A DNA stretch of 56,057 nt, counting the filler, from Jimgerdemannia flammicorona (lineage: Eukaryota), in the NCBI GenBank assembly GCA_003990765.1. It is 2 parts of 2 records of this genome, joined end to end, with 100 filler letters (N's around TTAATTAATTAA, not from the genome) between each part and the next. Parts side by side here need not be neighbours in the genome. Positions count along the whole stretch, not along the records: positions 1 to 27,984 come from RBNJ01000588.1; 1 more part is not named here. One strand, given 5' to 3'. The translations under genes and the position numbers were made by a program. Under the pieces are notes generated by a model. That model saw only the letters and a list, made by a program, of their open reading frames with translations, made no database searches and was not told where the DNA came from. Shown here one piece after another: positions 1 through 40,071 of this stretch. How positions within the stretch are numbered: the stretch's first letter is position 1; every line of letters begins with the position of its first letter.

Positions 1-69
1 TTTTTTTATAGTCACTTGGACTCCGCCTTTATTACCAGTCTATGAATAAATATACATCATTCCGACCCA

Positions 70-3000: not shown

Positions 3001-3724
3001 CCATCCCCACTTCCCCCAAAGCACCCCTGTCCCAAAAGCCCCCAGTGATCCGACCATGGACACCATTCCACCTCCAATGATTTCCAAACATCTAGTCCCC
3101 AGCAGCAGGCTGTCAAAATCCAATCGATTCTAGTCCCCAGACCCCCTGCCCAATGGGTATAGACCCTCCTACTCCCCCAGCACTCCCTACCAGCATCCAA
3201 TAGTGCACTCAGCCTCTCCACTTCCTCCCATGCCACCAGCCCTCCACTCCTGCTCTCAGCACCTTGGTCTCCATCTGATCTATCCAGCAGTATATCCCTA
3301 ACCATATTGAAATCTCCCCTAGCACATCCATCTCTGCCTCCACAAGTAATCTACTCTCCTGTAAGCCTTTCACCCAATCGACCCTATCACTCTGTACCGC
3401 AGGGCAGTAGCAGGAATCAACCATAACTGGCTCCCAGCCTGCCCTAATCCACTCTCCCCAGACCAGTCTCTCCCCCCAGCACTGTACATTCTGTATCTCC
3501 CCTCTGCCTTTCCTAACTAAAATCCCAACCTTGCCCTTCCAAATCGCCGCACCTCCCCATTCCTTCGTCCATTCTAACCTATCAGAGTTATCTTCGCACT
3601 AGACATCCTGCAAGAGGAAGAGATCGGCCTCCAATCCCTTCATCCAAGTAAAAATGTTCCTATGTCGAGAAGCGCCCCATAACTCATTCACGTTCAAAGA
3701 GAAAATATTGGTTGTACTGTTCAT
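70..3724 (-). pseudogene. LINE ORF2: APE endonuclease + reverse transcriptase + C-terminal Cys/His module
   Basis: Endonuclease motifs SLNVNEL, LFLLQD, TRIDWIL, WSDH. RT motifs APGEDG, LDQEKAYD, GVPQGDPLSP, AFADD, QYLGI. CxxC...H...C near 480-560. Broken by stops and frameshifts. Confidence 0.92.
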
Positions 3725-3757
3725 ATTGATGATATATGTGATGTTGTCAATCCGCCT

Positions 3758-5866: not shown

Positions 5867-8800
5867 ATTGGATATTGTCTATAGCGATATGCCAATTCAA
5901 CTAAACTGGTCTTAGTTTCTTAAACTTTCTGAAATATGGAAAATCCTGAACATCCAGAACTAGTCCAAAAAAGGACTTTGGTTGAGATGTCAATCTAATC
6001 TTGAAATCAATAAGCATAGAGGATGTACTCCATATGAAATTGATCTTGACCATAAGAAAACAGTCTTTCAGAATATCCAGAACTTCCAGAAAACCCTTCC
6101 AGAACTATATAACAGTTACTCTAAAAAGTAACCCTCTTACAACTTAGTAGCAGTGGTTTACAATCTAATTCTGCTTCAAGATACTTTCTCACCCTGCTAT
6201 AAACTCCTCTGCAAATTCCTATAAGTTGGTATAAAGCCCAACCTCTGAACTAGAATTTATTCTGAACCATCTGACAATCTGAAGAGAATTGAACCTGATG
6301 TATAAGGACAATTTGACCTCCACACCTGTAACAAGTGAGACAAACTTCATTCAAAGAAAGAAGTACTCCAATTAAATCAGCAAATAGGCAAAACCCTATT
6401 CACCAAACTCCTTACACTATACCCAGCAAGTCAAGATGAAAAAGGTCTTATAGAAGCCTTCTTTACTCTTCTCAACAAGAGTTTTGTCAGCTCTACAAAT
6501 CTGAGCAACCTAGGACAACCAGCAGCAGTCTTTCTAGCCTTAGTTCCTCATGAAGCCTAAGTCTCTGTAGCTAAGTGGCTCAACTCTACTGACTTTCACT
6601 GTACCAGGACCAAGACTGCATTATACTACTGATTCCAGAACAGCAAGGCCCACCATATTCTTAAAGAAGAAGCAAGAGAAACTCTTCATCAACTACCTGA
6701 CCCTGAATCTGAAGCAGGCCCTGCTACAGCCCTACCTGAATCTGAAACCAATACTGAACCAGAACTTGACTTTGAATTAAGTCCATCTGAAATCAGATAT
6801 ATAACTGACTTTGTCTACTTTGATGTCAAGCAAACCCAATTACATAGAGACCAAACCAAAGAAGAGGAGGAGTATCTCAGTGAATTCAATCTCAGATATA
6901 CCATTGAAGGAGATACACCTCCATCAGGCCAGAATACACCTATACAATAACAAACAGTTATCTATCAAGCCCTCACTCCAGACCCACAACTACTACTCTA
7001 GTAACTTATACAGACCCAAAGAACCCCATCACACTCTGTACCAGTACCTCAAGTAGTACCAGTAACACCACTACCAGTAGTCCAACTGTCTCCAGTGAAC
7101 AATATGGCAAACTAACAGATTCTAGACCTTATAGCTCAAGTAGCTATAATGGCTACAACCATTACTGCCCTAGCTGAACAGATCCAACCTACTAAAAATC
7201 TGAGTCTACCTACCTTCAATGGTATTGCACAAGAAGTCCAAAGCTTTATTAGTGTAGTTGACACCAACTTTGAAGCCAATCAATAGACAAATGAGTAAGT
7301 TGCTGACCATGTTCTGATAAACAATCAAGACCACACTCTGGAACAACTCTTTGCTACCACTACAGCCTATGTCCGCTAAGTTGTTACATTCTTCTGAGGA
7401 TCTGCCAAAGAATAGTAGTGAACTCTTCCTGAAAAACCCCTCACATGGGACACCTGACCTGTAGTAGTTGCTCAGAATATAGCAAATAATGCCCCAGGAT
7501 ATGGAGCCCACTCTGCAGCCCCTAGACTCAAACAACTCATGATTGCTCAATACCATAGTGAAATGATGATTGCTGAATCTTGAGTAAAACTCCACAATCT
7601 GAAATTTGATATGTATGGCAAAGAAGAATTTGAAACCTTCTGTACAAAACTCAAGTCACTCTTGAATACTATTGGCCTAGGATATATTACCAATGATGAA
7701 GCATAAAATGGTATAAGAGCAGACCATTTATTTGATGCACTATCTGAATGGCTTATTAGAAAAATCTGAGAACAAGGCCACCCAGTTAGTTGTGATCACC
7801 AACAATAGTGCCTGGCAAGAATCAAGACTATGGTCAAGCAAATCCTAACAGCTGGACCAATTCTTCCCTGAAGACAATTCAACAACAAGAAAAAGACTTG
7901 GACCAAGAAAGAAGAACTCAAGTATGAAGCATCCCGAGCTCCCTCCACATCCACCTCTTGGACACCCAGAAATCATAAACCCACCCAGCCAAGTACCTTC
8001 AAGAAACTAACTGAAGGAGAAAGGAATGAACTTTGAAGAAGCGGAGCATACTTCTATTGCCAAAAGACAGGACACATGGCCAGTGCCTGCCCTAACTGAA
8101 AACTCCAAACAGCAATACAAGCAACTGTTACCACTCTGCACCACCTCAATAACCTGACTACCAGAACACTAGACTTTGTCAAGTTAAGGCAAACTGCTAA
8201 GGCCCCAACCAAAGGAAGTCAAAAAGCAGCTGGATATAACCTATATGCTGCTGAAGAAGCTACAGTTTCCAACCAAGAAGTTAAGCAAGTCTATATAGGA
8301 ATCAGCATCCAAATTCCTGAAGGACATGTTGGAAGAATATACTGTCACAGCAGCCTAGCATTGAAAGGACTCTCAGTAGAAGAAGGAGTCATTGACAAAG
8401 ATTATACAGGCAAAATTATTGTCCTTATCTGAAACCATAGTTGGATACTCTTCAAGATCTCTATTGGTTTCTGCATTACCCAGATCCTATTTGAGAAAAT
8501 TGAGTCAACCCTGACAGTTAAGGAAGTCCCTGAACTACTACCTACCATCTGAGGATCCAAAGAATTTGGCTCATCAAACAAGGCTCCAGCCTAATCTATC
8601 ATGAGCAAAGAAGAACAATTCTACAAGAAAATCAAAGACAGATATGTACCAAGTGGCCAATGTCCCCATGGCATTGAAATGTACTCTTCCCGAATGATTG
8701 ATGATTGCTTCTCTTGTGTCAATGAACTGGCTCAAAGAAGAACTAACCAAAGAAAAGCTCCTATAACTGAAATTACTACCATTAGATCAGACAAACTGCT

Positions 8801-11005
8801 TACACTTAAAGCTTTTGTCAACTGAGTATCTGTCAAGATTATGATAGACAATAGTATCTCAGGCAACTTCATCAATAAAGAAATAGCCAACAGACTCAAG
8901 GTCTTCACCTCTCTGGTATAATAAACTCAAGCAGTTGCCATAGCTGATGGAACCTCACATGTTATTAGCAAGGAAGTCCACAACCTACCCTTCTGAATTG
9001 GTGACTATTGAGTACATATTACCCTCCAGATCATACTACTTCCTGACAATGAAATCATCCTTGGGACTCTATGGTTGAAATAAGAGAACCCCATGATCGA
9101 TTGGGTAAACCATTCTCTGACCATCAAGAAAGGATGCCATAACTTCAAACTGTAAGGCAAAAAGGACCCACTCAACTCTAGTGACCCTGGACCAAAGATC
9201 ACCCACATCAACAAGCTACAACTCAAGAAATTGGTCAAGAAATGCCCTCTCTTTGCTATCTCCATCTGTCCATCCAAAGGAGAACCCAAGAACTCTGAAG
9301 AAGACTTTTCTAAAGTTGACAGCCATATCAGACCCCTACTCCAGAAAGTCCAAGACATATTTCTGAACTGAACCACAGAACCACCTGTACCTGTCATTAT
9401 TAATGACCAAGTAGAATACAAAGTTAAACAAATCCTTAACAAACACAGCTACAAGAACCATCCAAATGGTATAACAACACCAGAACAAATTAGAAGGCTC
9501 TGATGAGGACGTCGAAAGCTAAGAAGGGGAGAGTTATAAGCGCACAACCTCCAAGCTACCAAAATCGCATAGCATCCTCAGAACTAATTTGGAAACCACA
9601 TGTGAGACTACAAAACAAGTTACTGAAGAGATCATCTGATTACACAAAATATGCCAGCAAGTATGAGAATCCACTGCTAAGATACAAGAATACTAGAAGA
9701 AGTACTACAACCATAAGACTGACTCTGAACTGCTATAACTAGTTTGGTTTACAAAAGGAAACCAAAAGTACCAAACTCAAATCGAGATAAGAAGAACTCT
9801 ATCTCATCTACCAAAAGGTTCACAAACTGCACTTATCAACTCAAGATCAAGATATACTACAACTATACAAGACCTCATTACTTAGCAGAAGCAAAATGTA
9901 TTTGAATAACTCTGTTTGCTCTATCTGTGTCATCTCTGTTGGAGAGTAACAGATGCTTCATCTGAACTCAAGAAAGCCAACATCATCGAAACCAATCTCA
10001 AGTCATACACATGACAGATATTACTACTAGAAATTGCCTTGGATTATAGAAAATATTATTTCTGAGAGGTTCAAACCCCCAGCTGTAACATTGGGAGCCC
10101 TTACCCTAGATGAGAATGGCCAGTCCTCACAAATGTGCCAGCAGACTAAAAAAAAAGAGAACCAAGACCTGTTATTCTTGTACAACTACTGCCACCAAGG
10201 ACAGCCTTAATCTTGCAAGAGATAGAAGTAATGACACCTTGAAACTGATGATATCAGAAGTCAGAAAACTGCTCAGACTTTGCTAGTGATAATGTCATCA
10301 ATAGTGATGTCATCAAAGACTAACCAAATAGCACCTAAACCTATAAATAGCTTATCAGTCATAGTATAGTTAGATTAGCCCCATACAATATGACTATAAA
10401 CTGACTCAGCATTCAGATATGTCAGATCACTCTTATACTATGTGACTGTATTCTGACTCAGCAAGGCACTTAGTACTATATCTATATCTAGCATAGTCCA
10501 GATAGCCTCTCACTAGTATAAATACCCCCTTCCACAGATCTCAGAATCTCAGACCTGAACAATCCAAACATAGCCCCTGAGTACTTCCCCACAATATTCC
10601 TTCATATAACTACTCCTAGTATAGCAATATCATGAATAGCGAATAAACCTATTTAATAACCCACAACCCACTCTTAAGTAAATCTACTCTCTATTAGGTC
10701 CCACTTCTAACCCCATCACGAAATTTCCTAATTGGGTATTGTCTGCAGCGATACGCCAATTCAACTAAGCTGGTCTTAGTTTCTTGAACTTTCTAAAATA
10801 CAGAAAATTCTGAATATCCAGAACTAGTCCAAAAAAGGACTTTAGTTGAGATATCAACTCAATCTTGAAATCAATAAGCATAGAGGATGTACTCCATATG
10901 AAATTGATCTTGACCATAAGAAAACAGTCTTTCAGAATATCCAGAACTTTCAGAAAACCCTTCCAGAACTACATAATAGTTACCCTAAAAAGTAACCCTC
11001 TTACA
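5867..11005 (+). mobile_element. Ty3/Gypsy lineage A copy A1: non-autonomous deletion derivative (gag-dUTPase-PR retained; RT/RH/IN deleted)
   Basis: Partial 5' LTR 5867-6140, PBS ~6144, zinc knuckle ~8050-8092, dUTPase ~8170-8577, protease ~8845. At ~9362 it jumps to the pre-chromodomain sequence, and at ~9473 to the pre-PPT sequence. PPT AAGAAGGGGAGAG at 9521-9533. Colinear with 39790-46574. Confidence 0.92.
9535..11005 (+). repeat. 3' LTR of A1 (1471 bp) with a variant U3
   Basis: Starts TATAAGCGCACAACC (TGT>TAT) after the PPT and ends CTTACA. The first ~30 bp and ~10288-11005 match the A2 LTR; the segment between does not. Confidence 0.88.
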
Positions 11006-11148
11006 GCTTGATATAGAGGATATGATCAATACTATGACCCATCAAATCCAAGAACTTCAAGTATAACTAAAATAGCAGAAAACAAGAACTATAAGTACAT
11101 TATATTCTGCTATAGTACTAGTCAGTTTTAAGTTACTTAAGTCAGATA

Positions 11149-12739
11149 CAGTGACAGCCAAAACTGTAACAATGTTTAGTTATTTTTTATATATAATTAT
11201 ATTATAGCTTCAATATAAATACAATAAAATCCAAATTTTTACCATTAATAATATAGTATCTTAGCTTTTGAATGGTATATTTTTTATTTTATTTAGATAA
11301 ATATAGACATTAATATAACCATTTTAAGTTATATTACCATTGTTACAGTTTTGACCCTCTTGGCCATCCAAACCTGTTTGGGTTCACCACGTACCATTAA
11401 GTTGGGCTATAATTATCCACTTTTACTACAGTGTTGTTTCAGACATTCTTTACCACTCTATGGTGTTTTGCCATCATTTTCAAGCAATGAAAAAGCTTTC
11501 TGTTGACGTTCATAACAACATCATCCACTTACTGCAATCCAGTTTATCCACATGCAAGATTGCCAAAGAAACCAATGTGAGTGTGATGACAGTAAACCAC
11601 ATAAAAATGATATATTGCAACAATATTCCTTCATCAGAAGGTGGCTGTCCAGCTATGTTTTCAGCCCAGGATGAAGTATAGATCACCCACCAAGTTACAA
11701 TTGGCAAAGCAGATAATGCCACCAGGGTCGTAAAAGCCCTTCAAGAAAGTGGCAAAAAGGCAAGCCTTAGTATGGTAAAATGAACGCTCCGAAAGGCTGA
11801 CCTCAAAGCATATGTGAAGCAAAAGAAATCACTTTCACTATCTCGCTACATAAAGGCATGCTACGAATTTGCTACAAAATACAAGCATTGGACAGTTGCC
11901 AACTGGAAAACCATTGTATTTTCCGACGAAATGAAGATTAACTATTTGGGCTCCGATGGATGCGAATGGATATAGCATAAATCGGGTGGTGGTGAGGAGC
12001 TCCAACCGAACCAGGTGACCAGAATACTAAAATTTGGTAGCAGATTGTTAATGCTTTGGGGATGTATGATGTATAAGGGTATTGGATATGCATGCCAAAT
12101 CAAAGACCAAATGAATGCCAAATTATATACTAGTATTCTTGATGATGAATTGCTTCAAATAATCAAGTATTACAAATTTAATCAAAAAAAGATCACCTTC
12201 CAACAGGATAATGATTCCAAACATATGTCCAAAATGGCATGTGAATGGTTCAAAAACAACTCTATCTATACGTTAGACTGGCCAGTGCAATTGCCAGACT
12301 TCAACCCCATCGAATATTTATAGTGTGAACTTAAAAAACAGTTGAATGCATATGACAAACCACCCAAAGGAATGCTGGAATTATGGGAGTATGTACAGCA
12401 TGTATGGAATAACATTCCTAAAGATGTTTGTATCAAATTAATTGAAAGTATGCCCAGGTGCATTGCAGCAGTATATAAAGCCAAAGGTAGATATGTTAAA
12501 TACTAAATAAAAATAAATAAGAGGTTTGGATAACCAAGAGGGTCAAAACTGTAACAATGGTAATATAATTTAAAATGGTATCTATATTTATCCAAATAAA
12601 ATAAAAAATATACCCTTCAAAAGCTGAGATACTATATTATTAATGGTAAAAATTTGGATTTTATTGTATTTATATTGAAGCTATAATATAATTATATATA
12701 AAAAATAACTAAACATTATTACAGTTTTGGCTGTTACTG
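11149..12739 (+). mobile_element. Tc1-family DNA transposon with ~225 bp TIRs and TA target duplication
   Basis: TA at 11147-11148 and 12740-12741. Ends CAGTGACAGCCAAAACTGTAA / TTACAGTTTTGGCTGTTACTG. Inverted repeats ~11149-11376 and ~12522-12739. Confidence 0.96.
11487..12506 (+). pseudogene. Tc1 transposase, DD34E, ~339 codons with 4 in-frame stops
   Basis: HTH-like N-terminus, then IVFSDE, FQQDNDSKH and PDFNPIE, with 34 residues between the second D and E. Stops at ~11679, 11781, 11972 and 12321. Confidence 0.93.
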
Positions 12740-14095: not shown

Positions 14096-16975
14096 TCATT
14101 ATAATTACATCTATATACTTATATATATAAATCAAGAATTGAGAAGCTTTCAAGAGAGCCCTTCATAGGCAGTTCAAGTCTACTAATACTACCAAGCTAG
14201 CCAGAGATAAGCTAGTGAACATCAAGCAACTCAAGTCTGTGCAAAACTATAATACACAATTCCTATCAATTCTACTTAAACTACTAGTAATAGTAGAGGA
14301 TGAAAAGATAGACTACTATATCTAAGGCCTGAAAGGAAACACATAAGTCAAGGTTGAGCTAGAAGAGCCACAAAGCCTTGATAAAGCTATAAGAATTACT
14401 AATAGGTTTGATATTATCACTTTTGGCAACTACTTTGAACCAAAATACCATAAGAAGAATTACTTCAAGAACTACTACAAGAACCAACCAAGAACAGTTG
14501 GCCCAGTATCAATAGACTTAGATACTATGAATAAAAAGAATATCAAGCTCACCTCTAAAGAAAAGAACCACCTGAAGAAATCCAGAACCAGTTTCTTTTA
14601 TTACAAAATAGGACATATTGCAATCAAATATTCTAAGAAGACTAGTGAACTCTCAAGATCAGTCACTGTATTGTCCAAGGATACATCTATCAACCCCACC
14701 ATCAGTCAACTCAAGCTCAAGATTAAGAAGCTTTATTTGAAGGCCCAGGCCCCTTAATATCAAATAGAAGAAGCTATTGATCTTGATCTATACTCTGTCA
14801 AACAAATCACTATCTCAGCTAAGGACTGAACTCTGATACCTACTGGAATTGCAGTTCAATACTATAAAGGATATTATATCAGAATTGCATTATAATTAGG
14901 ACTTAGTGTCAAACATCATTTAGATGTAGGTACTAATGTTATTGATCTAGACTTTTGAGAACAAGTTCAAGTTCTACTTATCAACCAGAAGGATCAAGAC
15001 TACACAGTTAAGGAAGGAGACCAAGTTGCACAAATGATCCTAGAAAAAGCCAGTCAACTCAAAATTACAGAAGTCCAAGAACTCTCTGAAACCAAATGAG
15101 ATTAAAAAGATTTTGGCAGTACTGATCAAGCAGTAAGTCTTAGTGAAAATCAAGCTTAAGCTATGCTCATTTTAAAAGGCCTAGTCAAAGAAAAAGAAGT
15201 TTAAGTACTCATAGACAGCAGAGCCACAGGGAACTTCATCAATCAGAACCTCATCAAAAGCCTCAAGATCCTTATCAAACCTGTACCCAAGAATAATAGT
15301 ATAGTCACTGCAGATGGTACTCTGTACTCCATCAAGTCAATTGCCACCAAATTACTCATCAAGATTCAGAAATATTAGGAATAAGTAGACTTTGAGATTG
15401 TACCACTAGGAGATCGTAACCTGATCCTAGAAAAACTCTGGCTTACAAAACATAACCCAGACATTGAATGGTGTAAGAATGAAGTCACTCTACTTCAAGA
15501 TAGAGCCAATATTACTATTAAGACAGACAAGACCATGAGCAAGACCCAGATTGCAATACTGTCAGCTATACAGTACAAGAGAGCACTTAAGAAGGCAATG
15601 CATACCTTTATTATAATAGTCCATCTCAAGAAATAAAACAAGAGACTATCAGTCAATAAAAGTATCAAGTTACTGCTAGAAGAATTCAAGGATATCTTTC
15701 TAGATAAGCTACCTAGTCTACTGCCTATATGAGAAGTTGATCATAAAATCAAACTGACCCCAAGAGCTGTACCACTTAAGAAATATATACTACATATTAC
15801 TACTCAAAATTAAAATAGTCAAGAAGGAACTAGAAGAACTACTTGTATAAGGAGCTATCTAGCCAAGCAAATTTCCTTATGGCTCACCAGTCTTATTTAT
15901 AAAGAAGAAATATGGTACCCTGTAAATATATATAGACTATCATGCACTCAACAAACTTACTGTCAAGAATCACTACCTACTACCCTTGATTGATCAAATC
16001 TTTGATGCTCTCAAGAATGCCAAATACTTCACCAAGTTGGACCTCATATCAGAATACTACCAGATCTGAATTAAGTTAGAAGATATTCTCAAGACTGTAT
16101 TTATGACCCCCTTTGGACTCTACAAATTCTTAGTCTTAGCATTTGGTCTCACTAATGCATCTACTATATTCCAGACCCTAATGAATAAGATATTCAAGAA
16201 CTAACTATTTATTTTCCTATTAGTATATCTCGATGATATCCTGATCTTTAGTGCAACTAAAGAAGAACACCTCTAATATATTTAAATAGTTCTGGAGATC
16301 CTATGAAAATACAAGCTTTATATCAAGCTCAAGAAGTGTAAATTATTTAAGGAACAAGTTGAATATCTTGGCCACATTGTCTCTGCATAAGGAATTCAAG
16401 TAGACCCATATCAGATAGAAGTAATTGAAGATTAGTCCATTCTGTCAAACCTCACAGAACTCTGATCCTTCCTTAATCTAGCTGGCTACTACTGCTGCTT
16501 TGTCAGAAACTTCTCTGGCATTACCAAGTCACTGACTAACCTCATAAGAAAGGTCCTGCACTCAGACTACTATGTATCCTATACCTGAGATCTCTTCTGT
16601 CAATAAGCTTTTCAAGAACTCAAGAACTACCTGATCTATGCTCTAGTTCTGCATAATGCAGATTAAGGCCTAAAATTAACAGTTACTACTGATGGATCGA
16701 ATTTTGCCATTGGAGTAGTCCTGTTATAAGATGATGGCAAAGGACATCATTTTATTACTTTTAAGTCCTATAAGTTAGTCCTAGCTGAACAAAAGCTAGC
16801 CACCCATGAGAAGGAACTACTGGCAATAATATAAATATTAGATTACTGGCAATGCTATCTAGAAGATATTGAGTTTGATGTCATCAATGATTATCAATCT
16901 CTCAAGTATATCAACACTAAACCTAATCTGTCATATCTATAGCCAAGTAGAGCCTCAAGCTTCAAACCTTCAACC

Positions 16976-18300
16976 TGAGACTTTTCTGGAGCCCAACTGG
17001 TGGCTGGGCCAGTGGCTGAGAGAGAGACTACAGATGGGCTCTCTGGGGCTAGTGGGGTGACTGCTGGTGTCTTGGGAGATAAGAGGAAGGTGATGATGGC
17101 AGCTGGCTCTGGAGAACTAGTGGTGCATCCTTTTTTCCACAAATCAGTATTGACATGAGTGATCTTGGTAAATTTCCTGGGATTGGGTTTGTCTGCCAGA
17201 GAGATTTTATGGCTAGTGGGTGAGGAGATTACCAGTGTAGAGTCCCTGAAGTTTATTCCATCAGCAGAGGCAGTAGAGATTGGCTTTGTGGAGGTAAAGG
17301 CCCTGGAGAAAGGGTTGGTGGTCAAGAGCATCAAGGTTGGAATGGAGAGGTGTCTGAGGTGGGATCCATATATAGTACATCTGGTGGTTGAAGGGATACT
17401 GACTCTTGAGAGGCAAGAGACTAAGAGGATAGTGGTAGAGATACTAGCAGGCTTTGGTGAGATGGTCAACTTTGGATTTATGTTCTGGGAGGGGACTAAG
17501 CTGAGGAATGGCAACTGTGAGATTATGGTGAGACTGGAGGACAAGGAGGCCATGGGGCTAGGAAGGGACTGGCTGGAGGTAATTCTAGTTGAAGAACAGA
17601 AATACAAGGTATAGAAGAGGAAAGAATCTGAACAAGAGGAGGAGGAATTACTACTTGCTCTGGAGGAGAGAGAGGCCACCAAGGAATTGCAATAGAGGAG
17701 ATGAGAGGAGTATACCAAGGACTGGATTTGGATTCTGACAGATGGGAGAAGGAAGAGATGATAGAGAACTAACTGGAAGTGCCTGCAGATGGTTCTCCAG
17801 GGTGCAAAAATGAAGGAAGAAGTGAGGGCAGAGATGGCCAAGAGTCAGATGGAGGAGGTGGAGATAGCTGAGGTATCCTTTTCGTAACTGGGGGGTGTGG
17901 AGACCTCAGCTCATATGCTGGTAAAGGAGAAGTGGGCTGATAAGGAGGAGGTAGGTGAAGGGGGCTTTGAGGAAGTAGTTGAGGTAGTACCTGAGATACA
18001 GGTGGAGGATATTCATATAGCAGAAGCAGTGAATGTTCATTGGAAATGTTCAGAGACAGGAGAGGTGGTGTGGCTGGAGAAGAATACTGAGGAGGATGAT
18101 CTGGTAGATGTGGCCTCTGATGTGTTGGCAGACAGAGAAATACTACAGAAGCTGAGTAGAACTCCAAGGCCTACTACCTCTAGACCTCTGGTGATTACTG
18201 CTGATGACTGGTATCAGGCAGTACTTGAGGAACTGGCAGAGGAGGATATCAAGGAAGTGGATATGTTTAATGGATCTCAGGAGGCTTGGAAAGGATTCCT
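16976..18300 (+). pseudogene. ORF1 fragment of a second, related L1-like family
   Basis: 17159-17614 (VEIGFVEV...RCLRWDPYIVHLVVEG) aligns with 4955-5758 (VEVGFEEV...RCLKWDPRVVQLLVKG). Boundaries are approximate. Confidence 0.8.
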
Positions 18301-20478
18301 CAATATCACACTACAAGGGCCAAAACTGGTAATAGTGATAGTGGTGGTATATCCAAGTAGAGTTCTTGGTCCTCATGCCTAGGGATATCCATTCAGATAA
18401 GGGGTCCTTCAAAGAGGTCAGAGAGGCCTTGGAGCCATTGGTCTGGGTTGTCATCCAGGAGAGAGCTCCAGTGGTGTTCACAGTCAGTAGACTTGAGAGT
18501 AATCCAGGAGTTAACTTCTTGGGCTACCTTGATCTCTAGCTCATCAACCTCAGAGAAAGAGAGGTTCTGGAAATCCTTCAGTTAGATGTAGTTGAGGTTG
18601 GGGATTACAAAGAGTACATGGCACATAATTTGATAGACCTTCTTGGCAAGTCTTTGCTTGTATCTGTCCAGGTGGGTCCAGTCTGAGACCTGGTCAATAG
18701 GTAGGCTGTTTGTATGTTGAAGAAGCTGGTGGCTGATTTTATATTTATGCCAGATCTCTAGATGGCTGGTAGCAAGATTGGCCCTTTCGATGAGTTCATG
18801 GCAGTCAAGAACATAATGCCCTAGATTCTGGCTGGAGAGGTTAAGGGCCTCAGAGCAGTGATTTCTTCCTTGAATGGCAACCTGGATATGTCTGAAGAGG
18901 TGATCAACCTGGCTTGGGAGGAGCTGGCTATGGTGGGCAGTTTGGTAGCTGGTAGTGGGCATTCTTGTCTTGTCTTTTCTTTGTGAGGAGAGGGGAATAA
19001 GAGTTGTGGGGTATTCTTGCCTTGGGTATTTATACTTATTCACCTATCTGGTATGACCTTCTTTTGGTCATACTTTCTAGCCAAAATGTATGACCTATTG
19101 CTATAAGTGGGGCATATGCTAGTCATATGAGAAAATCCTGATTTCAAAGATATTGTCACTTGTAGTTGTAGTTATACAGGGTTAACAGGTCTTGGTCCTC
19201 TTTTTTTTTGTCTAGTTAGTGCTTTTGTAAGGACTGGCCATCCTTATCTAGGGCAAGGGCTCTCATTGTCACAGCTGGGAGTTTGAACTTCTCAGAAATA
19301 GAATTTCTTATAATTCAAGGCAATTCCTAGTAGCAATATCTGTTATATGGATGGGCTTAAATTGGTTTTGATATCATTGGCTTTCCTAAGTTCCATATGA
19401 AGTGTCTATCATCATTCAGTAGAAATGATACAGATGGTGTGAAATAGAGTTGTTCAAATGTGTTTTGCTGTATTATGTAAGATTGTTCTTCATCTGATTA
19501 TCTTCTTATTGGTTATCTATGATGTTTCCTTTTTTCTGCAATGTTCAGTATTATATGTTTTGGATAAAATATGTAGTATCTTGTTTGCTAAGTGCTCTGA
19601 TTCTTTAGAGCTGCAGTTCCTTCCTTTGCTGGGGAGTGAGTGTTTCCATATTATCCTAGAGGGCTTCATGTGTATTCTCTAGAGCTTCTTCTTTTTTCCA
19701 GGTAGCATCATGGGTGGGGTAACCATTCCACTTGATGAGAAAAACCTGCTTGACTGTTTTGGGGTATTTGTGGACCTTGTGGTCAAGTACTTCCTCAATT
19801 TTGAATTCCTTATGATTATTGATTCTAATTGGGAGTAGTGGTGAAACTATATACTTGGAGAATGGGTTCTATAGTAGTCCACCAATTGGCTGATATGGAA
19901 TACTGGGTGTACTCAGATATTGTAGAGAAGTTGCAACTTATAGTTGACTTTGCTGACTTTTTCCATAATCTTGTATGGTTCAATTCTTCTAGCACAGAGT
20001 TTCTTAGCAGGTTGTTGTGCTAGGGTGTCTGGATGGAGGTGATCTGTTCTAAGCATGACCCTGTTACCAATGTTATAGGAGACTTCTCTTCACTTCAAGT
20101 TTGCATACTTGGTCTAGTAGTCTTGTGCTTCTATAAGAGTATCTCTTGTCATTTGAGTAAGGTCAGAAATGGTCTTGGCTAGGTCTTGGGCTGCTGGGAC
20201 TACTAATTTCACAGTAGTACTCAGAGTCCTTGGGTGTTGACCATGATTCAGAAAGAATAGAGTCTTCTTTATAGAGGTTTGCTGGCTGTTATTATAAGCA
20301 AACTTGGTATGGACTAAGTACTTGTCCCAATTATTCTGCTTGTAATAGCAGAAGATGCTAAGCATCTGTTTGAGAGTCCTATTAGTTCACTCAGTTTGAC
20401 CATCAGTCTGGGGGTGGTAGGCAGTAGAGAACTTCAGCTTAGTTCCATGAAGAGAGAAGAATGTCTTCCAGAAGTTGC
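18300..20478 (-). mobile_element. 3' part of Ty3/Gypsy chromovirus lineage D (integrase end, chromodomain, 3' region with an extra ORF)
   Basis: [14 protein letters not shown] at ~20390-20432 and KFAYNNSQQ. Chromodomain EFKIEEVLDH...FLIKWNGYPTHDATW at ~19700-19810. Confidence 0.88.
18310..18962 (-). pseudogene. Accessory ORF of lineage D, homolog of the LTR-encoded protein family; function unknown
   Basis: TATAAATACCC at 19024-19034 (minus), ATG at 18962. The frame continues past the TAA at 18582 as LKDFQNLSFSEVDELE...DDNPDQWLQGL. It aligns with 54.9-55.5 kb. Confidence 0.75.
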
Positions 20479-20582
20479 TTTTTTTTTTTTTTTTTTTTAT
20501 AGTCACTTGGACTCCGTCTTTATTACCAGTCTATGAATAAGTATGCAATATCACCACCCACTATCCAATCCCCCTAGGGGGA
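20479..20582 (-). mobile_element. ~100 bp 5'-truncated 3' stub of the L1-like family
   Basis: T20 followed by ATAGTCACTTGGACTCCG..., matching positions 1-90 and 36499-36600. Confidence 0.9.
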
Positions 20583-21582
20583 CACAAGATACAGCCTTTA
20601 TACTCTATGACAGATGTTTGCAGAGAATTCTTCTTTTTTTGAACCTTCGGATTGCAAGGTGCCTCCCTCTCCAAAGAGGATCGTCATCGATGTTCAGTTT
20701 CTTGGTATATTAAGAGGCGTCGAGTTCCGATTGGTGGTCGCTGATGCTTAACACGATCTACCAACATAAATTTTATATATAGCTGCTTGGAGGTAAGTTT
20801 ATTATTCCAAAAGTCTTTAATAGATGCAGTCCATGCCAACACTGAAGACATTGCACCCCATGCGGTTTTTTTTTTCCTGCTCGTGTGATCAGATCGCCGT
20901 TTGTTGGTGATGCGTTATCTCGACCGGGTCGGCGGGGATAAGTGATGATGCCGTGCAGCGGGATTTTGGTGGATATTGTGCGGGGTTGATAGGTAGCATC
21001 TCGTTGCCGACTTCCGCGTGTGTGGTTGAAGAGATGATTGGAAAGAGGCTTTTCAAGAGTAATCAGTCAGTGAAAACGGGGCATCTTGACGAGAATACCT
21101 GTAGGATTTGAAGGTTTGGAAAGTTGATGCAGCAAGCAGTCCTCTGCAGTATATCTGAATCATGAGTTGTCGAACGATCACACGCTAACATCGTAAACCC
21201 GAGCCTTCGTCATAAAAGGATTAGCATCCGCAGGTCGGCATCGATCGGGACCTGGACCGATTCGCACGTGCAGTTTGAGGTGGGCACACAATATGACCAT
21301 AGAGAAGACGAAAGGAAATAATGAAGATTGAGGGAAATGAATTTCAACAGTTTAGATTGAGAGGCTGTCATGAGTTGGCTGTCATGAGTTGAAGTCGGTA
21401 ATTTAATTAGAAGCAGTAATCAAAGAAACAGAACAAGCCCCATCCTCAAATAGAAGTCTTTTTTGGCTCTAAAAATAATCTATACTGCGGTGAGTTAAAA
21501 ATAGCGTGTAAAATGTCTATAAAGTCGGCACAACCCATCGACACGACCAATACACAGCCACACCTCAAAGTTACGCCATAAG

Positions 21583-23039
21583 ATGTCACACCAGGTTCCG
21601 ATAAATCTAGCACTAAGGCTCTTACCGCATTTTGACGACCTTCCAAGAGAATATTGGAGCAACGTCTTTCGCCTTAAGCGCCAGTTCCCTTACGACAGCG
21701 AACTCAAAAAAAACCTGAAACAATTGAATCCTAAACTGGTGGCTCTAGTTCGGTACCTGGTTTGGATCCCCTATAACTGCTTTGTTAAGATCGAACAAGT
21801 GGGCCAAGGCGATTTTACGAACGGTAAGTTTCAAAATTATACATATATCCCTCGTGTATCCTGTGCGCTTAACTCATCACCTTATCCACCACAGTTTGGA
21901 AAGGAACGATTTCAAACTACATGTCCGAGGGTGGCAACGCACACGATGAATGTTTTGCCCTAAAAGAAATTGACGAGTCCCTTGTGCAAGAGGTTGGTTT
22001 TTTCGATTGTGATTTCTCTGCGTATACAGGAATATCAAGGAAACCTTTGTGTTGTCAATGACTTATTGGATTCTTCGGTCTTGGTAAATGCGTATAGGCT
22101 ATGGTGTATACAATTATTGCGAACTCCGTGAATATTATGGGCCTTACAAAGCACCCTAAATCTGGAAAGTATTTCGTCATTACGGAATTCCTCGAAGGAG
22201 GCAGTTTGGAAGATAGATTGAGTCAGCATGCGCTAGACAACTGGGTAAACATTTTCGAACAGGCCTTCGAACTCTGTTTGAATCTAGCTCACCTCCACGA
22301 CTTTGGATTGATACACTATGACCTCCACCCTGGCAACATCGCCTTTCGAGCCGCAGAGAGTACGTCTTCTCTGATGATGGATATCGGGGCCGGAGAAGTC
22401 ATTTCCAACTCTGAAAATGAAAACGATGGCTGCTATGGTCGAATGCCATACCTCCCACCAGAAGTATTCAAGGGCAAGCCATACACCATGGCGTCTGATG
22501 TTTACTGTCTCGGAACACTTCTGTGGCAGCTCGCCAGCCACGTCCCACCACGCGGAACAGCCGGCGCTCTGTTCCGAGCAGACGGGATGCGTGAGGACCA
22601 TGTACCTGGCACGCCAGTCAAATATCAAAGGATCATTGACGCATGTTGGAACGTTGATCCAGCCAACCGGCCCACTGCAAAGGAAGTTAAAGACCGCCTA
22701 TCGCGCCTACGGTGCTCGTACGACCCCTTTCTCCCGGTTCCAAAGTATTCGCCTCAACACCTACTCGTCTGGTTCAACCTCCATTTCCGAAACTGTCCGT
22801 CTCGCAGAGCCAAGGAACACGTCGCACGACGGATGGCTGAACACCAGCGAGATCTCGACGCGGAACAATGTGAGAGTATCGGAAGCCTCACCCTGGTCGA
22901 TGGGATATCGCCTGCCATTGTCCCATCAATGGCATATCGAAGCCGGTATTACACGCGACAACAGCTGAAAGAATTCTCTTGGCCTACTTCCGTCATCCAA
23001 GAGGCTCAGTGGATTTTTGCTCCGTCGAAGGCGTCATAA
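21583..23039 (+). CDS. Tyrosine-kinase-like protein kinase, 3 exons: join(21583-21823, 21895-21992, 22098-23039), ~426 aa
   Basis: GT-AG introns 21824-21894 and 21993-22097 restore one frame. Motifs: WIPY...VGQGDFTNVWKG, FALKE, ITEFLEGGSL, HYDLHPGN, DIG, YGRMPYLPPE, SDVYCLG, CWNVDPANRPT. Confidence 0.88.
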
Positions 23040-24071
23040 ACATACGAGAAGACTGTCGATGTACTGGAAATGTATGAGTTGATTATGCGAATTCAATCAT
23101 TTATGTATGAAGATTTTTCTTTTTCTCTTTGTATGCTTTTTATTTCAAACAAACAATACGGAGATGTTGAGAATATGGGAAAGGCCTCGGTGATCATTTC
23201 TTCGAATAACGAGGTTCATTCGCAATAGAGGTTTAACTGTCGACCAACCTAGAATCTACGTGCTGGGCGTTTTCGTCAAAAGCACATTTTGTAAAATAAA
23301 ATAAAATAAGTACAGTTGACGATATATGTGCGAGACACGTGATCGACCATCGCTTTGGGATGAATTTAATTACCTTTTTACGCCTCAACTCCTCCACGCT
23401 CCCAACGACAACGCCGTCAACCTTCAGTTCGACCTCACGCACCTAATAACCGACTCGGCTTTCCGCGACGTAACCCTGTCTGCTCCGACGGCGTCGAGGT
23501 CGGTGCCTGTCGCGCCGTCCTCGCGTCGCTCTGGAGCGCCTTCTCTATAGCGACCCCACCTGCCCTCCGTGACATCAAATCGCCTGCGCTACGTATCGTT
23601 CTCGTCTTTATTCATACCGATACAATCGATGCGGCGCCGCTCTCGCCCTGGGCCGCCGTCGAGGCGTACCGTGCCGCGTCTATCTTCCTCCTCCCCAAGC
23701 TCATGGGCATGATCCTGAAGCGCGCAGAAGTCGACGACGTCAAAGTCGCGTCGTCGCTTCTTAACGAAGCTGTCGCATCCGTGCGGAAGGACCAATCGAC
23801 GGTCGCGTTTTTCCGTGTCCTGATCAGATCCATCCGGATCTGGACGAGCTGTTCGAGGACGCTGCTTACGTGTCATGATCACGTGCTGATAACCCACCTC
23901 CAGTTGACCACGCTTCGAACCGCCAACGTGAACTCCACGGACGTGCCAAAGATCCGTTTGCAGGATGACCGCTCGCGCGCATCGCTCCAGAGGATATGCA
24001 TCTTCACTGACACATCCTTGCACATGGCACCTGTGACTTTTTTCCGGAACAAATATTCCCGATTAGATCAA

Positions 24072-24227
24072 ATTGATTAAATCGGTTGACATTGATTAAA
24101 TCGTTTAGCATTGATTAAATCGTTTATCATTGATTAAATCGTTTAGCATTGCTGGCATTGATTAAATTGGTTAGCATTGATTAAATCGGTTAGCATTGAT
24201 TAAATCGGCTGTCATTGATTACACCGA
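24072..24227. repeat. 19-bp minisatellite (ATTGATTAAATCGGTTAGC-like), ~8 copies
   Basis: Head-to-tail units visible directly, with one short interruption near 24148. Confidence 0.92.
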
Positions 24228-28084: not shown

Positions 28085-28242
28085 AAAACAAATTTTTTTT
28101 TTTTGTAAAATTTTTACCAAAGGTAGAATTATTATATAAAAAATTATTGGTAAATTTTTTTTTAAAAGCTATTATGATTTTAAAAGTTATAAACTTTTAA
28201 AATCTTGCCTCTAAATATAGGTGCAAAACAGTCAAAGGGATA

Positions 28243-31200
28243 AGTCTTGTATTCTGTGACTTCATATTGACTCAGCTTTATATGCTGTGACTTCAGTTTG
28301 ACTCAGCTTTATGATCTTGCAGGTGATTTTCAGATTTGTTTGGAGGTCACATGTGATTTCAGTGGCTTGTTCAGAGGGTGACATGTGATTTCAGTAGCTT
28401 GGAGGTTGTGTGCTTACAACTCTCCCCTTCTTAGCTTTCAATGTCCTTGTTGGGGCCTTCTAATTTGTTCTAATGTTATTACACTATTTGGGAGGTCAAA
28501 AGTCTAGTGAAGTCCATTTTTCTCAGAAAGCAGCATACTCATAGTACAGTTGCCTAATATGTTGGATTTATATATTAAAGGGTTATGTGTTCAATGCCAT
28601 GTGCTGAAAGTGATTCTGACATCATTCACTGTTGGAGAATTTTCTCTAAGGAATCTTCTTAAATGTCTATGCCTCATTTCCCACCAGTGGTACAGAGAGA
28701 ATAGGCTTGCTTTCAGTTTTGCTATTTTTCTAGAGAGTTGGTATTCTTTGTCTTGTCTTGCTGAGTCCTTGATTTTGTTCATAATAATTATAATATTTGG
28801 AAGAGTAATATATAGTATGTACTGATAGGTGTGGAGTATTTGGTTTTAGTTGTTCAAGGAATTATATTCCTGAACTAAGTCAGTAGCATTCTGGAGGTTG
28901 GTCTTGGGTTCTCAGATTATGTCATAGATTGGGTAACCTTTCTATTTGACAAGATACTCAGGGTGATTCTTGTGGCCACATTTATTGAGGATTTGTTCAA
29001 CTTCGTATTCTTCTTGGTCATTAATAGTGATAGGTGCAGGTGGTTCGGTTGTCTGGTTTGAGAATAGCTCATCATCATTTTCATTGTATCACTTGAGACA
29101 TTAGACATTAAAGACTGGATGGACCTTAATAGTGTCTGGTAGTGCCAATTTGTAGGAGGTCAGAGAGACTTGTGCAATGACTTCAAATGGTCCAATAAAC
29201 TTACTGTTCAGCTTTGTAGATGGTCTGTGTTTGAGGTTGTCAACTTGGTATCCTCAGATATCTAGTAGAACTTTTTCTCTAATATCAAAGATTTCTTCTC
29301 AGTAGTATTGGTTAACATACTGTGACTGTTGTTCTTGAGCTTGTGATAAATTCTCAATTGCAATCTGGCTTAGATTACATATTCAGAGCAGGAATTCTTC
29401 AACAGCTTTGACTGTAGAGAGTTCATTGGTAGTTCAGATAAGTGTCAGAGAGGTGTTTGGGTTTTGTCCAGTGTTGGCAAAGAATGGAGTCATTCTAAGA
29501 GAGGCTTGCTTGCTATTGTTATAGACAAACTTGACTGCAGTAAGGTATTCATACTAATCATCTTATCTGTAGAAAACATAGTTCCTTAGCATTTGTTCCA
29601 GATTTTGGTTCATTCTTTCAGTTTGGCCATCAGTTTTAGGGTAAAAGACTGTAGATAGTGCAAGTTTTGTTCCAAGGTATGCATAGAGAGCTTTCCAAAA
29701 ATGGCTGGTGAATTTCAGGTCTTGATCACTAACAATGATCTTAGAAAGACCGTGATAGCAGAAGATATTGTCAAACAAGAGTATGGCTATGTCTGGTGCT
29801 ATTGCAGTAGTAGTAGTTGGTATGGAGTGGGCTTGCTTGCTGAGATAGTCCACAAAGACAATAATTGTATCTTTCCCATTCTTGGTTTGGGGTAGTTGTA
29901 CAATGAAGTCCATAGAGATTTGTTCCCAATTAGTGGATAGTACTGGGATAGGGTAGAGTAAGCCAGGTTTTGCTAGTGTTGAGGACTTGTTTCATTAGCA
30001 GGCATCACAGGAAGTAATGTAGGTCTTTAGCTAATCTGCCATGCAGGGCCAATAGAAGTTTTAGGAGATAACTTCATAGCATTTGTCAAATTCTAAATAT
30101 CCAGTGGTAGGGATATCATGACATTCAAATAAGATAGTCCTTTGAAGGTCTCAGTTGTTTGGAACATACAGTCTGTCCTTGTAATAGATGGTATTATTTT
30201 TGAGTTGGTATTGGTTGTACTGGGTATACTTATTAGTATCATTACTATTTAGGATTTCTCAGAGTGCTTGAGCTTCTTTATCATCAGCACATACTGTGAT
30301 AATTTGTTCCATGATAGTGTTGGTAACCAAGGTGAGAGTTTGGATAACTTCTTCAATGAATAGTCTGAAGATTGCATCAGCAACAATGTTTTTCTTACCA
30401 GGGTGATACTGAATTTTGTAGTCAAAGTTGGTGAGAACTTTCATCTATCTGGCTTGCTTTTGAGAAAGGGTAACCTGTGTTTTGATGTTGACTAATGACT
30501 TGTGGTCAGTCAATACAATAAAGTGTGCTCTTTTTAGATATAGTCACCATTTGATCAGAGTGTCTACGATGGCTAACATTTCCTTCTTGTGAGTTGCATA
30601 GTTGATTTCAATATTATTGAACTTGTGGGAATGGTAGGCCACAGGGTGTCCTTCTTGCATGAGTACTGCTCCAAGGGCTAGGTTGGAGGTATCAGTAGTA
30701 ACTTCATATGGTAGAGCAGAGTTTGCTGCTTGAAGTACTGGAGTAGTTATCAAGATATCTTTCAATGCTTGAAAGGCTGTATCTTGTTCAGATCTCCAAT
30801 TTATAAGATTGTTGAAGTCTTTTTCTTGTTTTATGGTCTAGAGCTGTTCTTTTTTCTTGCTATGCTTGGTTATTTGGATGAGGACAGTAGTAATCTTAGT
30901 GAAGTTAGCAACAAATTGCCTGTAATAATTTGCTAATCCCAGGAATGACTGGAGGTCTTTCAGCTTCTTGGGTCTGGGCTAATTCTTGATTACAGAGATT
31001 TTGCTGAGGTCTACTTTGATTCTATTTGGTGTGACGATGTATCCAAGAAATTGAATTTCCTTCAGGAGGAATTCACACTTGCTGAGTTTTGCAAAGAGTT
31101 GGTTTTCTTGGAGTTTCAGTAGTATATACTAGTTTGAGGTATTCAAGATGTTCCTCCAGGGTTTTACTGAAGACTAGGATGTCATCAATATAGATAATAA

Positions 31201-34200
31201 TGAATTTATCTAGGTATGGGTGCAGAATAGTATTCATCAGGGTCTGGAAAGTTGCTGGAGCATTAGTTAAGCCAAAGGGCATAACCAGAAATTCAAAATG
31301 TCCATAGCGAGTTTGGAAGGCTGTCTTGTAGTTGTCTTCTTCTTTCATAGCAATTTGCCAGTAATTATTTTGTAGGTCAAAAGAGCTTATAAATTGTAGG
31401 TTGGTAAGTCTGTCAAATATTTCATTGATTCTGAGTAGTGGGCAACAGTTCTTGATGGTCTGTTCATTGAGATCTCAGTAATCAATACACATTTATAGGT
31501 CTTCTTCTTTCTTGACAACAAAGAGGACTGGTGTACCATAAGGTGATATACTGAGTCTGATGAATCCTTATTCTAGGAGTTTGTCAATTTCTTTCTTGAG
31601 TATATTGATTTCTCTCAGAGACATATGGTAGATTGACTTGAAGGCTGGCTTGGCATCTGAAATGATCTTGATGGCATAGTCTACTGCTTGTTTAGGAGAT
31701 AGGCCTTTCAGAAGTTTCTTTGGGAATATGTTTCGAAATTTCTAGAGTAGTGGTCTGACACAGCTGTCAACTTTAGAAAAGTCTTCTTCAGAGTTCTTGG
31801 GTTCTTCTTTGGATGGTTAGATGGAGATAGCAAAAAGAGAACATTTCTTGGCCAATTTCTTAAGCTATAGCTTATTGATGTGAGTGATCTTTGGTACAGA
31901 GTCACTAGAGCTGAGTGGGTCCTTTTCACCTTGCAGTTTGAAGTTGTGGCATCCTTTCTTGATGGTTAGAGAATGGTTTACCCAATCAATCATAGAGTTC
32001 TCTTGTTTTAACCATGGAGTTCTAAGGATGATTTCATTGTTTGGAAGTGGTACAATTTGAAGGGTAATATGTACTTGGTAGTCACCAATTTGGAAGGGTA
32101 GGTTGCAGACTTCCTTGCTAATGACATGTGAGGTTCCATCATCTGTAGCAACTGCTTGAGTTTGTTGTACCAGAGAGGTGAAGACCTTGAGTCTGTTGGC
32201 TATTTCTTTATTGATGAAGTTGCCTGAGGCACCACTGTCTATCATAATCTTGACAGATGCTCAGTTGACAAAAGCTTGAAGTGTAAGCAGTTTGTCTAAT
32301 CCAATAGTAGTAATTTCAGTTGTAGGAGCTTTTCTTCTATTGGTTTTTCTTTGAGCCAGTTCATTGACACAAGAGAAGTAATCATCAATCATTCAGGAAG
32401 AGTATATTCCAATATCATGGGGGCATCAGCCACTTGGTATATATCTATCTTCAATTTTCTTGTAGAATTATTCTTCTTTGTTCACAGTAGGTTGGGCTGG
32501 GGTCTTGTTTGATGAGCCAAATCCTTTGGATCCTCGGATGGTAGACAGTAGTTCAGGGACTTCCTTGACTATCAGGGTTGACTCGATTTTTTCGAATAGG
32601 ATCTAGGCAATGTAAAAACCTATAGAGATCTTAAAAGGTGTCTAACTGTAGTTTTGGATAAGGACAATGATTTTGCCTGTATAATCCTTGTCAATGACTC
32701 CTCCTTCTACTGAGAGTCCTTTTAATGCTAGGCTGCTACGATAGCATATTCTTCCAATATGTCCTTCAGAGATTTGGATACTGATTCCTATATAGACTTG
32801 CTTGACTTCTTAGTTGGAAACTGTAGCTTCTTCAGCTGCATATAGGTCATATCCAGCTGCCTTTTGACTTCCTTTGGTTGGGGTCTTAGTAGTTTGTCTT
32901 AACTTGACAAAGTCCAGTATTCTGGTGATCAGGTTATTGAGGTGGTGCAGAGTAGTAACAGTTGCTCATTTTGCTGTTCGGGGTTTTCGGTTGGAGTAGG
33001 CACTGGCCATATGTCCTGTCTTTCAGCAATAGAAGTATGCTCCACTTCTTTGAAGTTCATTCCTTTCTCCTTCAGTGAGTTTCTTAAAGGTACTCGGCTG
33101 GATGGGTTCATGATTTCTGGGTGTCTATGAGGTAGATGTAGAGGGAGCTTAGGATGCATCATGCTTGGGTTCTTCTTTCTTAGTCCAAGTCTTTTCCTTG
33201 TTATTGAATTGTCTTCAGGGCAGAATTGGTCCAGCTGTTAGAATTCACTTAACCATAGTCTTGATTCTTGCTGGACACTATTGTTGGTGATCACAATCAA
33301 CTGGGCGGCCTTGTTCTTGAATTTTTCTCATAAGCCATTCAGGTAGGATATTGAATAAATAGTCTGCTCTTATACAATTTCATACTTCATCATTGGCAAT
33401 ATATCCTAGACCAATAGTGTTCAGGAGTGACTCGAGTTTTGTACAGAAAGTTTCAAATTCTTCCTTGCTATATACATTGAATTTGAGGTTACAGAGTTTT
33501 ACTTGAGATTCAGCAATCATAGTTTCACTGTGGTATTGGGCAATTATAAGTTGTTTGAGTCCAGAGGCTGCAGGATGGGCTCCATATCCTGGGGCATTGT
33601 TTGCTATATTCTGGGCAACTACTGCAGGTCAGGTATCCTATGTGAGGGGTTTTTCAGGAAGGGTTCACCACCATTCTTCAGCAGGTCCTCAAAAGAATAT
33701 AACAACTTGACAAACATAGGCTGTAGTTATAGTAAAGAGTTGTTCCAGAGTGTGGTCTTGATTGTTTATCAGAAGACAGTCAGCAACTCGCTCATTGGTC
33801 CATTGATTGGCTTCAAAGTTGGTGTCAACTATACTAATGAAGCTTTGGACTTCTTGTGCAGTACCATTGAAGGTAGGTAGGCTCAGATTTTTGGTAGGTC
33901 GGGTCTGTTCGGCTAAGGTAGTAATGGTTGCTGCCATTATGGCTATCTGGGCTGTGAGGTCTAAAATCTGTTAATTCATCATGTTGTTTACTGGAGGTGG
34001 TTGGACTGCTGGTAGTGGTGTTATTAGTACTACTTGAGGTACTGGTGCAGAGTGTGATGGTGTTCTTTGAGTCTGTGTAAGTTGCTGGAGTAATAGTTGT
34101 GGGTCTGGAGTAAAGGCTTAATAAATAGCTATCTGTTGCTATATAGGTGTGTTCTGTCCTGATGGAAGTACATCACCTTCTGTGGTATATCTAGGATTGA

Positions 34201-40068: not shown

Positions 40069-40071
40069 ACT

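Follow-up and report, generated by a model that had tools for sequence, protein, structure and literature searches.

Accessory genes are what divides complex retroviruses from simple ones. In mouse mammary tumour virus (MMTV) the superantigen gene sag, which encodes a membrane glycoprotein, lies in the U3 region of the long terminal repeat (LTR), and the regulatory genes of foamy virus (Tas/Bel1, with an internal promoter) and of human T-lymphotropic virus (HTLV; Tax) extend into the 3' LTR and influence transcription from it. Accessory genes of LTR retrotransposons are, to our knowledge, rare and located between the LTRs, and in plants the additional open reading frames (aORFs) of such elements reportedly occupy the space from the LTR to gag or from pol to the LTR. 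Here we describe a gene from Jimgerdemannia flammicorona, present in two lineages of Gypsy elements (called C and D) and probably in a third (A) within a window of 56,057 nucleotides, which is the whole stretch of DNA that was analysed (two joined parts of assembly GCA_003990765.1). We lean towards the view that the copy in lineage D is a pseudogenised copy of a protein gene carried in the LTRs of several chromodomain Gypsy lineages.

The aORFs of plant LTR retrotransposons have been reviewed (PMC7264820), and in the accessible portions of that text ORFs are nowhere described as lying in or inside the LTR. For fungi, the accessible part of a survey (PMC2864245) shows, for some elements, an "add. 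ORF" whose function is not known and records a variable position of dUTPase among basidiomycete and Tuber elements, and Boty-like Gypsy elements of Botrytis cinerea are described as having an additional antisense gene, brtn (Zhao et al. 2011, as cited in PMC8365987). The phrase "LTR contains an ORF" occurs in the accessible part of PMC9412291. A literature search that had subscription papers and the supplement of PMC2864245 outside its reach found no fungal retrotransposon described as carrying a conserved sense gene within its LTR, only mentions of the MMTV type and passages in which such wording has another meaning.

The present gene resembles sag in being a conserved sense frame within a long LTR, probably in its U3 region, and hence present twice per element. 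It differs from sag in that it matches no retroviral Pfam family, encodes no hydrophobic segment, belongs to chromodomain Gypsy elements of a fungus-like host and has a dedicated TATA box directly before it. Like the aORFs it is an extra frame beside gag and pol that is conserved within element lineages, but it lies inside the LTR itself. With brtn, which can be compared by its partial description only, it has in common that a fungal Gypsy element carries it as an accessory gene and that standard annotation does not include it, but brtn is antisense according to the cited title, whereas the present gene is sense and in the LTR. Tas and Tax may serve as a working analogy only, for a non-structural protein of small size whose tail is acidic and hydrophobic and whose gene has a separate promoter and stands at or in the LTR; the searches showed no likeness to them in sequence or fold, and the N-terminal domain is acidic here. 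In lineage A the gene lies within the element bounds and is neither gag nor pol, and between lineages D and C the protein is conserved. The classification as an accessory gene of an LTR retroelement is thus supported, as a variant with an LTR-internal position and a putative promoter of its own.

The gene in lineages D and C

By self-comparison and Pfam scans of its open frames, the window is a nest of repeats, eukaryotic and fungus-like. Element A1 is a full Gypsy/Ty3 chromovirus (38002-48638, plus strand), and C and D are two further Gypsy lineages, both on the minus strand; the pol remnants of D are an integrase SH3 domain and a chromodomain only. The coordinates of the features are collected in Table 1.

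In D, the frame runs from the ATG at 18962 to a stop at 18395-18393 on the minus strand, 189 codons with an internal TAA at codon 127. Past this stop it continues with "MDIP", and the relatives show R or K followed by MDIP, so the stop is read as a decay mutation; the tail past the premature stop is decayed. The original prediction had placed the gene at 18310-18962. Its start stands, but 18310 lies slightly past recognisable protein, the envelope of the profile hidden Markov model (HMM) ending at 18342. The peptides that it had quoted are present both in the D frame (18962-18393, minus strand) and in C (55318-55010, minus strand). The C copy has its ATG at 55558 and starts with MSATCQTS.., resembling MPTTSYQTA.. 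of D, and its original stop at 54714-54712 follows ..DEDEASMVLNILL; the same C-terminal words are found in two of the relatives listed below, P0008 and P0009. It has decayed through a frameshift near 55285-55330 and several stops, with HMM matches in two frames (55554-55285 and 55330-54836), and we read it as frameshifted because P0008 is an intact C-like relative.

That D and C are homologous, as had been proposed, is clear: the proteins are 47.6% identical over 103 amino acids (aa; tblastn within the window, E 8.6e-26) and 0 of 2000 shuffles attain the observed score. At the DNA level the likeness is limited to scraps of 25 nt (E 0.011) and 43 nt (E 0.13), so the claim of protein conservation without obvious DNA identity holds.

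Relatives were found outside the window as well. A word-index protein search yielded P0002, a D relative of 214 aa with 57% identity (1 of 53 candidates passed), and other searches of this type passed 1 of 47 and 2 of 6301 candidates. A HMMER search with a profile of D, C and P0002 against 1,835,955,588 representatives returned six proteins at E<=0.001, five of which are credible (E 2e-130 to 8e-13), namely P0002, P0007 (342 aa), P0008 (247 aa), P0009 and P0010 (200 aa, E 8e-13). An ankyrin-repeat protein of 698 aa, P0011, matched in nine stretches and was discarded as a repeat artefact. The relatives all come from short metagenome contigs of JGI or ENA, either without a name or labelled "hypothetical protein". 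Locus searches for relatives gave one among 201 pattern matches, the metagenome contig L001, which has an intact frame of 291 codons with TATAAAAG about 80 bp ahead of the ATG; no relative was found among matches on viral contigs (0 of 73 and 0 of 71) or on prokaryote genome contigs (0 of 41 and 0 of 51).

The pattern of differences is that of a gene under constraint. Between D and L001 the ratio of nonsynonymous to synonymous change (dN/dS) is 0.13, with 60, 39 and 94 differences at codon positions 1, 2 and 3, and between D and C it is 0.20, with 45, 28 and 58 differences. The DNA identity of D and L001 is 65.8% in the N-terminal domain (N-domain; 9 gap columns) versus 46-50% in the flanks, which have many gaps. 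Given also the intact relatives of 247-342 aa on environmental contigs, we are highly confident that an LTR-borne, selected gene family is real, and the old, selected and Gypsy-linked family of the original prediction is borne out for D and C.

Lineage A, the layout of the LTR and rival explanations

In A1 the gene starts 288 bp inside each LTR, at 38290 and 46863, in sense orientation. Read through its decay mutations it comprises about 365 codons, to 39391 and 47960. An environmental protein that is intact over 247 aa (P0016) is 66% identical to the second half of the A gene, and since it ends with ..EYPDSI and A with ..DYPDSA, the length of the A gene is confirmed and its tail is real coding sequence. 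All seven A strings quoted earlier can be read from a single frame at 38323-38667, and five recur at 46896-47186. The gag gene, the CCHC knuckle and the pol domains of A1 are all outside the LTR gene. Between the two LTRs there are 129 transitions, of which 62 are in CpG context, against 2 transversions, which is deamination-type decay with a signature like that of methylation or repeat-induced point mutation (RIP). The U3 of A also contains short tandem repeats at 38019-38173 (32 nt x2.1 and 31 nt x2.2), and the second, 31-nt repeat holds TGAGTCA words of the AP-1/Gcn4 type at 38115 and 38146.

The position inside the LTR is direct for A, where it is given by the 2068-bp repeat, and for C and D it is deduced from the layout. 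In every copy the gene is on the strand of the pol or gag of its own element. The C gene lies upstream of gag, protease and dUTPase on a shared strand, and the order on that strand is TATAAA, ATG, stop, a 35-nt tandem array, gTATAAAtacc, AATAAA and gag; the array, at 54528-54697, holds 4.9 units and lies between the gene stop and TATA box 2. The dUTPase stands before the protease in A (42046-43005) and after it in C (51581-52486), and as the LTR gene is common to both, it is either older than this difference or LTRs have been swapped between the lineages.

In D, the chromodomain frame lies 694 bp upstream of the gene start, and the equivalent distance in A is 717 bp. The original prediction held that the LTR boundary of D could not be located; the start can be narrowed, though not fixed, to a range from 19656, the stop of the chromodomain, down to about 19170. 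The LTR ends near 16900-16960, at a shift in composition and the start of a reverse transcriptase (RT) fragment of another element. Purine runs resembling a polypurine tract (PPT) occur nearby at about 19537-19525 and at 19211-19198. The stretch 19469-19168 recurs with 78% identity at 9890-10189, within the LTR of A3, a deletion derivative of A, which suggests mosaic LTRs between lineages, and the part 19270-19160 is conserved in L001. The AATAAA at 17257-17252 is the sole one on the sense strand in the scanned region 16900-19560. The C/T-rich remainder of the D LTR also contains long open frames at 16894-17844 (minus strand, 316 codons) and 17888-18382 (plus strand, 164 codons); they have no Pfam matches, look like composition artefacts and were rejected as genes.

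Several observations count against the reading of a selected gene inside the LTRs. Within A the dN/dS is 0.26 (Nei-Gojobori), and the LTR-LTR pair of A1, which should be near-neutral, already gives 0.32 through transition bias; the value within A was therefore rejected as evidence of selection, and the case for selection rests on D/C and the intact relatives. The five copies in the window (D, C, both A1 LTRs and A2) are all broken, so that the window does not show a working gene in this genome. The 3' LTR of A3 (about 9535-11013) is without the gene, which may thus be dispensable in cis. LTR ends are placed exactly in A but not in C and D, and "inside the LTR" is for that reason direct for A only. 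It might even be that the copies are captured or decaying pieces of a host gene, or chance frames in C-rich LTR DNA, with no role in the element. The broken copies and the ability of C/T-rich LTR DNA to yield spurious long frames, such as the one at 16894-17844 (minus strand), would fit this, but we find it very improbable. A captured host gene does not go well with the lack of any Pfam match and with database relatives that are unnamed metagenome proteins only, the codon-position asymmetry, low dN/dS and intact relatives speak for coding constraint, and the gene occupies one and the same position in three lineages of elements among which even the placement of dUTPase varies. Another possibility is that A and D/C are unrelated families that arrived independently in the same place of the LTR and look alike through helical structure and similar composition. 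Pairwise comparisons leave room for this. Single BLASTP comparisons of D or C with A are marginal (E 0.008 and 0.001, the same colinear 50-59 residues), the scores of D or P0002 against the A copies are attained by 28, 12, 12, 7 and 4 of 2000 shuffles in five pairs, and those of the short C fragment by 60 and 361 of 2000. Aligning the two small alignments with hhalign gave P 0.0024 and a probability of just 12% over 105 columns, a shallow A-family HMM used in the reverse search did not find D and C in the six-frame window, and the C-terminal halves of A and D/C are not alignable. On the other side, the best non-self matches of the D/C profile HMM in the six-frame window are both complete A copies (E 1.3e-4 and 4.6e-4), in the correct frame and colinear across profile positions 4-145. 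The controls were clean: the reversed translation reached at best -0.8 bits and 20 shuffled windows 5.3 bits, and none of 3000 shuffles of the first 160 residues of A (best 10.0 bits) came up to the real 15.6. A and D/C also have in common their position, orientation, TATA-to-ATG spacing and the build of an N-domain with an acidic tail. The link to A is one of a 15-bit profile score; the colinearity of A with D/C that had been claimed is upheld at the profile level and stays marginal in pairwise comparison. We judge from the alignments that the N-domain of A is likely homologous to that of D/C, which makes A a distant member with the N-domain alone in common, and two independent families are in our opinion unlikely.

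The last question is which promoter the gene uses. In D the TATA box claimed in the original prediction was found again, with a C/A-rich leader without any ATG between it and the start codon. The first TATA box (TATA1) stands 72 bp before the ATG in D, 75 bp in both A copies and 85 bp in C, and about 80 bp in L001; the leader is free of ATG in three of the four (D, C and L001), there is an in-frame ATG just past TATA1 in A, and all four have an A at -3. This regularity, together with the favourable context of the ATG, would also suit an arrangement of the "ORF0" type, comparable to ORF1 of Ogre but within the LTR, in which the gene lies in the transcribed leader (R/U5), TATA1 is the genomic promoter and the protein is the first cistron ahead of gag. 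The TATA1 of D reads GTATAAATACC, the same words as in the second TATA box (TATA2) of A and C, which agrees with such an arrangement, and TATA1 could be the sole promoter of the element. The downstream signals point the other way. Past the gene stop, but still before the end of the LTR, both A LTRs and C have a second TATA box and then an AATAAA, as in an ordinary U3/R/U5 arrangement, and D has a candidate pair. With an R region longer than 1 kb, moreover, the gene would stand in full at either end of the RNA, for which we know of no precedent, and the translation of gag would require reinitiation past a frame of 290-365 codons. A leader gene is for these reasons rather improbable, and the order of the signals leads us to place the gene in U3, behind a promoter of its own, which we consider somewhat probable. 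The LTR-internal position, with a probable promoter of the gene's own, and the narrower LTR bounds of D are additions to the original prediction, and in C and D the placement is again a matter of layout.

Protein features and possible function

The N-domain is about 140-190 aa long and mildly acidic, with an isoelectric point (pI) of 5.6-6.3, and the tail has a pI of 4.05-4.37. The tails are rich in Asp and Glu together with bulky hydrophobic residues, as in DLISFSDDDDEAPLILNFLL at the end of P0008, and PPxY motifs occur in A and in the D-type relative P0007. No hydrophobic segment is present, the highest 19-aa Kyte-Doolittle mean being 1.21, and an env-like or membrane protein was rejected on this ground; the product is predicted from its sequence to be soluble with a disordered acidic tail.

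In the searches that were made the protein is an orphan, with no match to a host gene or a pol domain. A Pfam scan of D, C and both A copies gave only sub-threshold noise (DUF7013, DUF6827 and Complex1_49kDa; E 0.017-0.14) and no Gag or zinc-knuckle match, and the D/C HMM reached just E 2.7-3.7 on the gag region 41042-41290. A sequence profile search of PDB had no matches at E<=10. The AlphaFold2 models are both poor, with a predicted local distance difference test score (pLDDT) of 54 for the D/C family and 32 for A, and leave the proposed role without structural backing; in both of these low-confidence models the N-domain is all-helical and the tail unstructured. Foldseek found nothing in PDB at E<=0.001 for the D/C model (best E 1.3), which is uninformative given the low confidence of the model, and the nearest clusters in the ESM Atlas (0.82-0.92) share few features, have a structural TM score below 0.4 and are leads only, none of them usable.

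We hypothesize that the gene sits in the U3 of long LTRs of about 1.7-2.3 kb, in the same orientation as gag-pol, and that it would be transcribed from its own promoter, TATA1, with the transcript using the ordinary poly(A) signal of the LTR. Each LTR, including solo LTRs, would then form a transcription unit complete in itself, about 1.2-1.5 kb long. The product might be a trans-acting adaptor, whose tail, resembling an activation domain, boosts LTR transcription or blunts host silencing, and would be neither a structural nor an enzymatic component of the particle. The resemblance to acidic activation or adaptor tails is what makes us favour a trans-acting regulatory or anti-silencing role, and the role itself is tentative. 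For an action on the element's own LTR, the tails and the tandem repeats in the U3 of A are indirect support. With its acidic character the N-domain does not look like a typical DNA-binding domain, which speaks against direct binding to DNA. Taken further, the long LTRs of fungal-type chromoviruses could be genes, with a promoter, a frame of 250-365 codons and a poly(A) signal, that encode a trans regulator in the style of retroviruses with the element family or host silencing as its target, which is a speculative generalisation that we put forward with reserve.

The interior of an LTR is an unusual place for a conserved gene, and the family was previously unnamed. Without a name, domain or structure it has probably been missed by ordinary repeat masking and gene annotation. 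If there is a conserved U3 gene with its own promoter, LTRs are more than promoters and terminators, solo LTRs could stay expressed genes and form a dispersed gene family, and these elements would count as "complex" retrotransposons whose U3 gene had an origin separate from that of the retroviral sag, nef and tas. It would also be a concrete candidate for self-regulation of the element or for countering host silencing.

Other elements and transcripts in the window

The internal gene order of A1 is gag with a CCHC knuckle, dUTPase, protease, RT, RNase H, integrase and chromodomain.

Table 1. Coordinates of the gene copies, their putative signals and the surrounding Gypsy elements; PBS, primer-binding site.
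Feature	Position	Strand	Remark
D gene copy	18342-18962 (HMM envelope)	-	HMM E 1.6e-104, profile 1-199
TATA box 1 of D (TATAAA)	19034-19029	-	72 bp before ATG
D stretch upstream of TATA box	19168-19469	-	probably 5' part of U3
Candidate LTR promoter and poly(A) signal of D	TATATA 17374-17369; AATAAA 17257-17252	-	117 bp apart; by analogy with A
D pol 3' end	19659-20089	-	Tf2-type integrase SH3 19913-20089; chromodomain 19659-19868
C gene copy	54712-55558	-	HMM E 1.9e-65 and 1.7e-20, two frames
TATA box 1 of C (TATAAA within aaTATAAAAGaagg, same in L001)	55638-55643	-	85 bp before ATG
TATA box 2 of C (gTATAAAtacc)	54377-54372	-	downstream of gene, upstream of gag
AATAAA of C	54350-54345	-	downstream of gene, upstream of gag
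Lineage C genes	protease 52169-52486; dUTPase 51581-51943	-	gag also present
A gene, 5' LTR copy	38290-39391	+	TGA at codon 20; frameshift near 38900
A gene, 3' LTR copy	46863-47960	+	~365 codons; internal stops at codons 54, 209, 227
A gene remnant in A2	35650-36519	-	N-terminus absent, several stops
TATA1 of A (TATATA)	38215-38220; 46788-46793	+	75 bp before ATG in both LTRs
TATA2 of A (gTATAAAtacc)	39581-39586; 48150-48155	+	downstream of gene stop
AATAAA of A	39704-39709; 48273-48278	+	123 bp after TATA2, then LTR end
A1 5' LTR	38002-40069	+	2068 bp, 93.5% identical to 3' LTR
A1 PBS-like TGGTAGCAGCGG	40072-40083	+	directly after 5' LTR
A1 3' LTR	46575-48638	+	PPT gctaagaaggggagag immediately before
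A2, truncated inverted copy of A	28240-36501		
A3, deletion derivative of A	5867-11013		without RT through integrase

A protein-kinase gene lies at 21595-23620 (Pkinase, E 6.5e-20), with two short GT..AG introns at 21823-21893 and 21991-22095. Three sequencing runs contain part of 16900-24100, two with spliced kinase contigs and so RNA-like (85% likeness); both introns are bridged by high-depth contigs in two runs, and the kinase gene thus appears to be expressed amid the repeats. For the D gene, the RNA-like runs hold one short contig in one run (bin 18368-18734, depth about 10), which is too little either way.

A LINE-like element (long interspersed nuclear element) is present on the minus strand in two copies that are about 80% alike, one at 1-4190 and one at 36515-37999 and 48638-51310, the latter split by the insertion of A1. 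It has an endonuclease at 50200-50877 and an RT at 48620-49287, and its sense strand is strongly G-rich. A stretch of 103 bp at the broken upstream end of the D integrase (20479-20581) is 95% identical to 36502-36604, at the junction by A2, and may point to a rearrangement common to both sites or to the terminus of a LINE copy. There is also a sub-threshold DDE_3 fragment of a Tc1/mariner-type transposase (11976-12320, E 7e-5), which lies between inverted repeats of 235 bp at 11144-11378 and 12744-12519.

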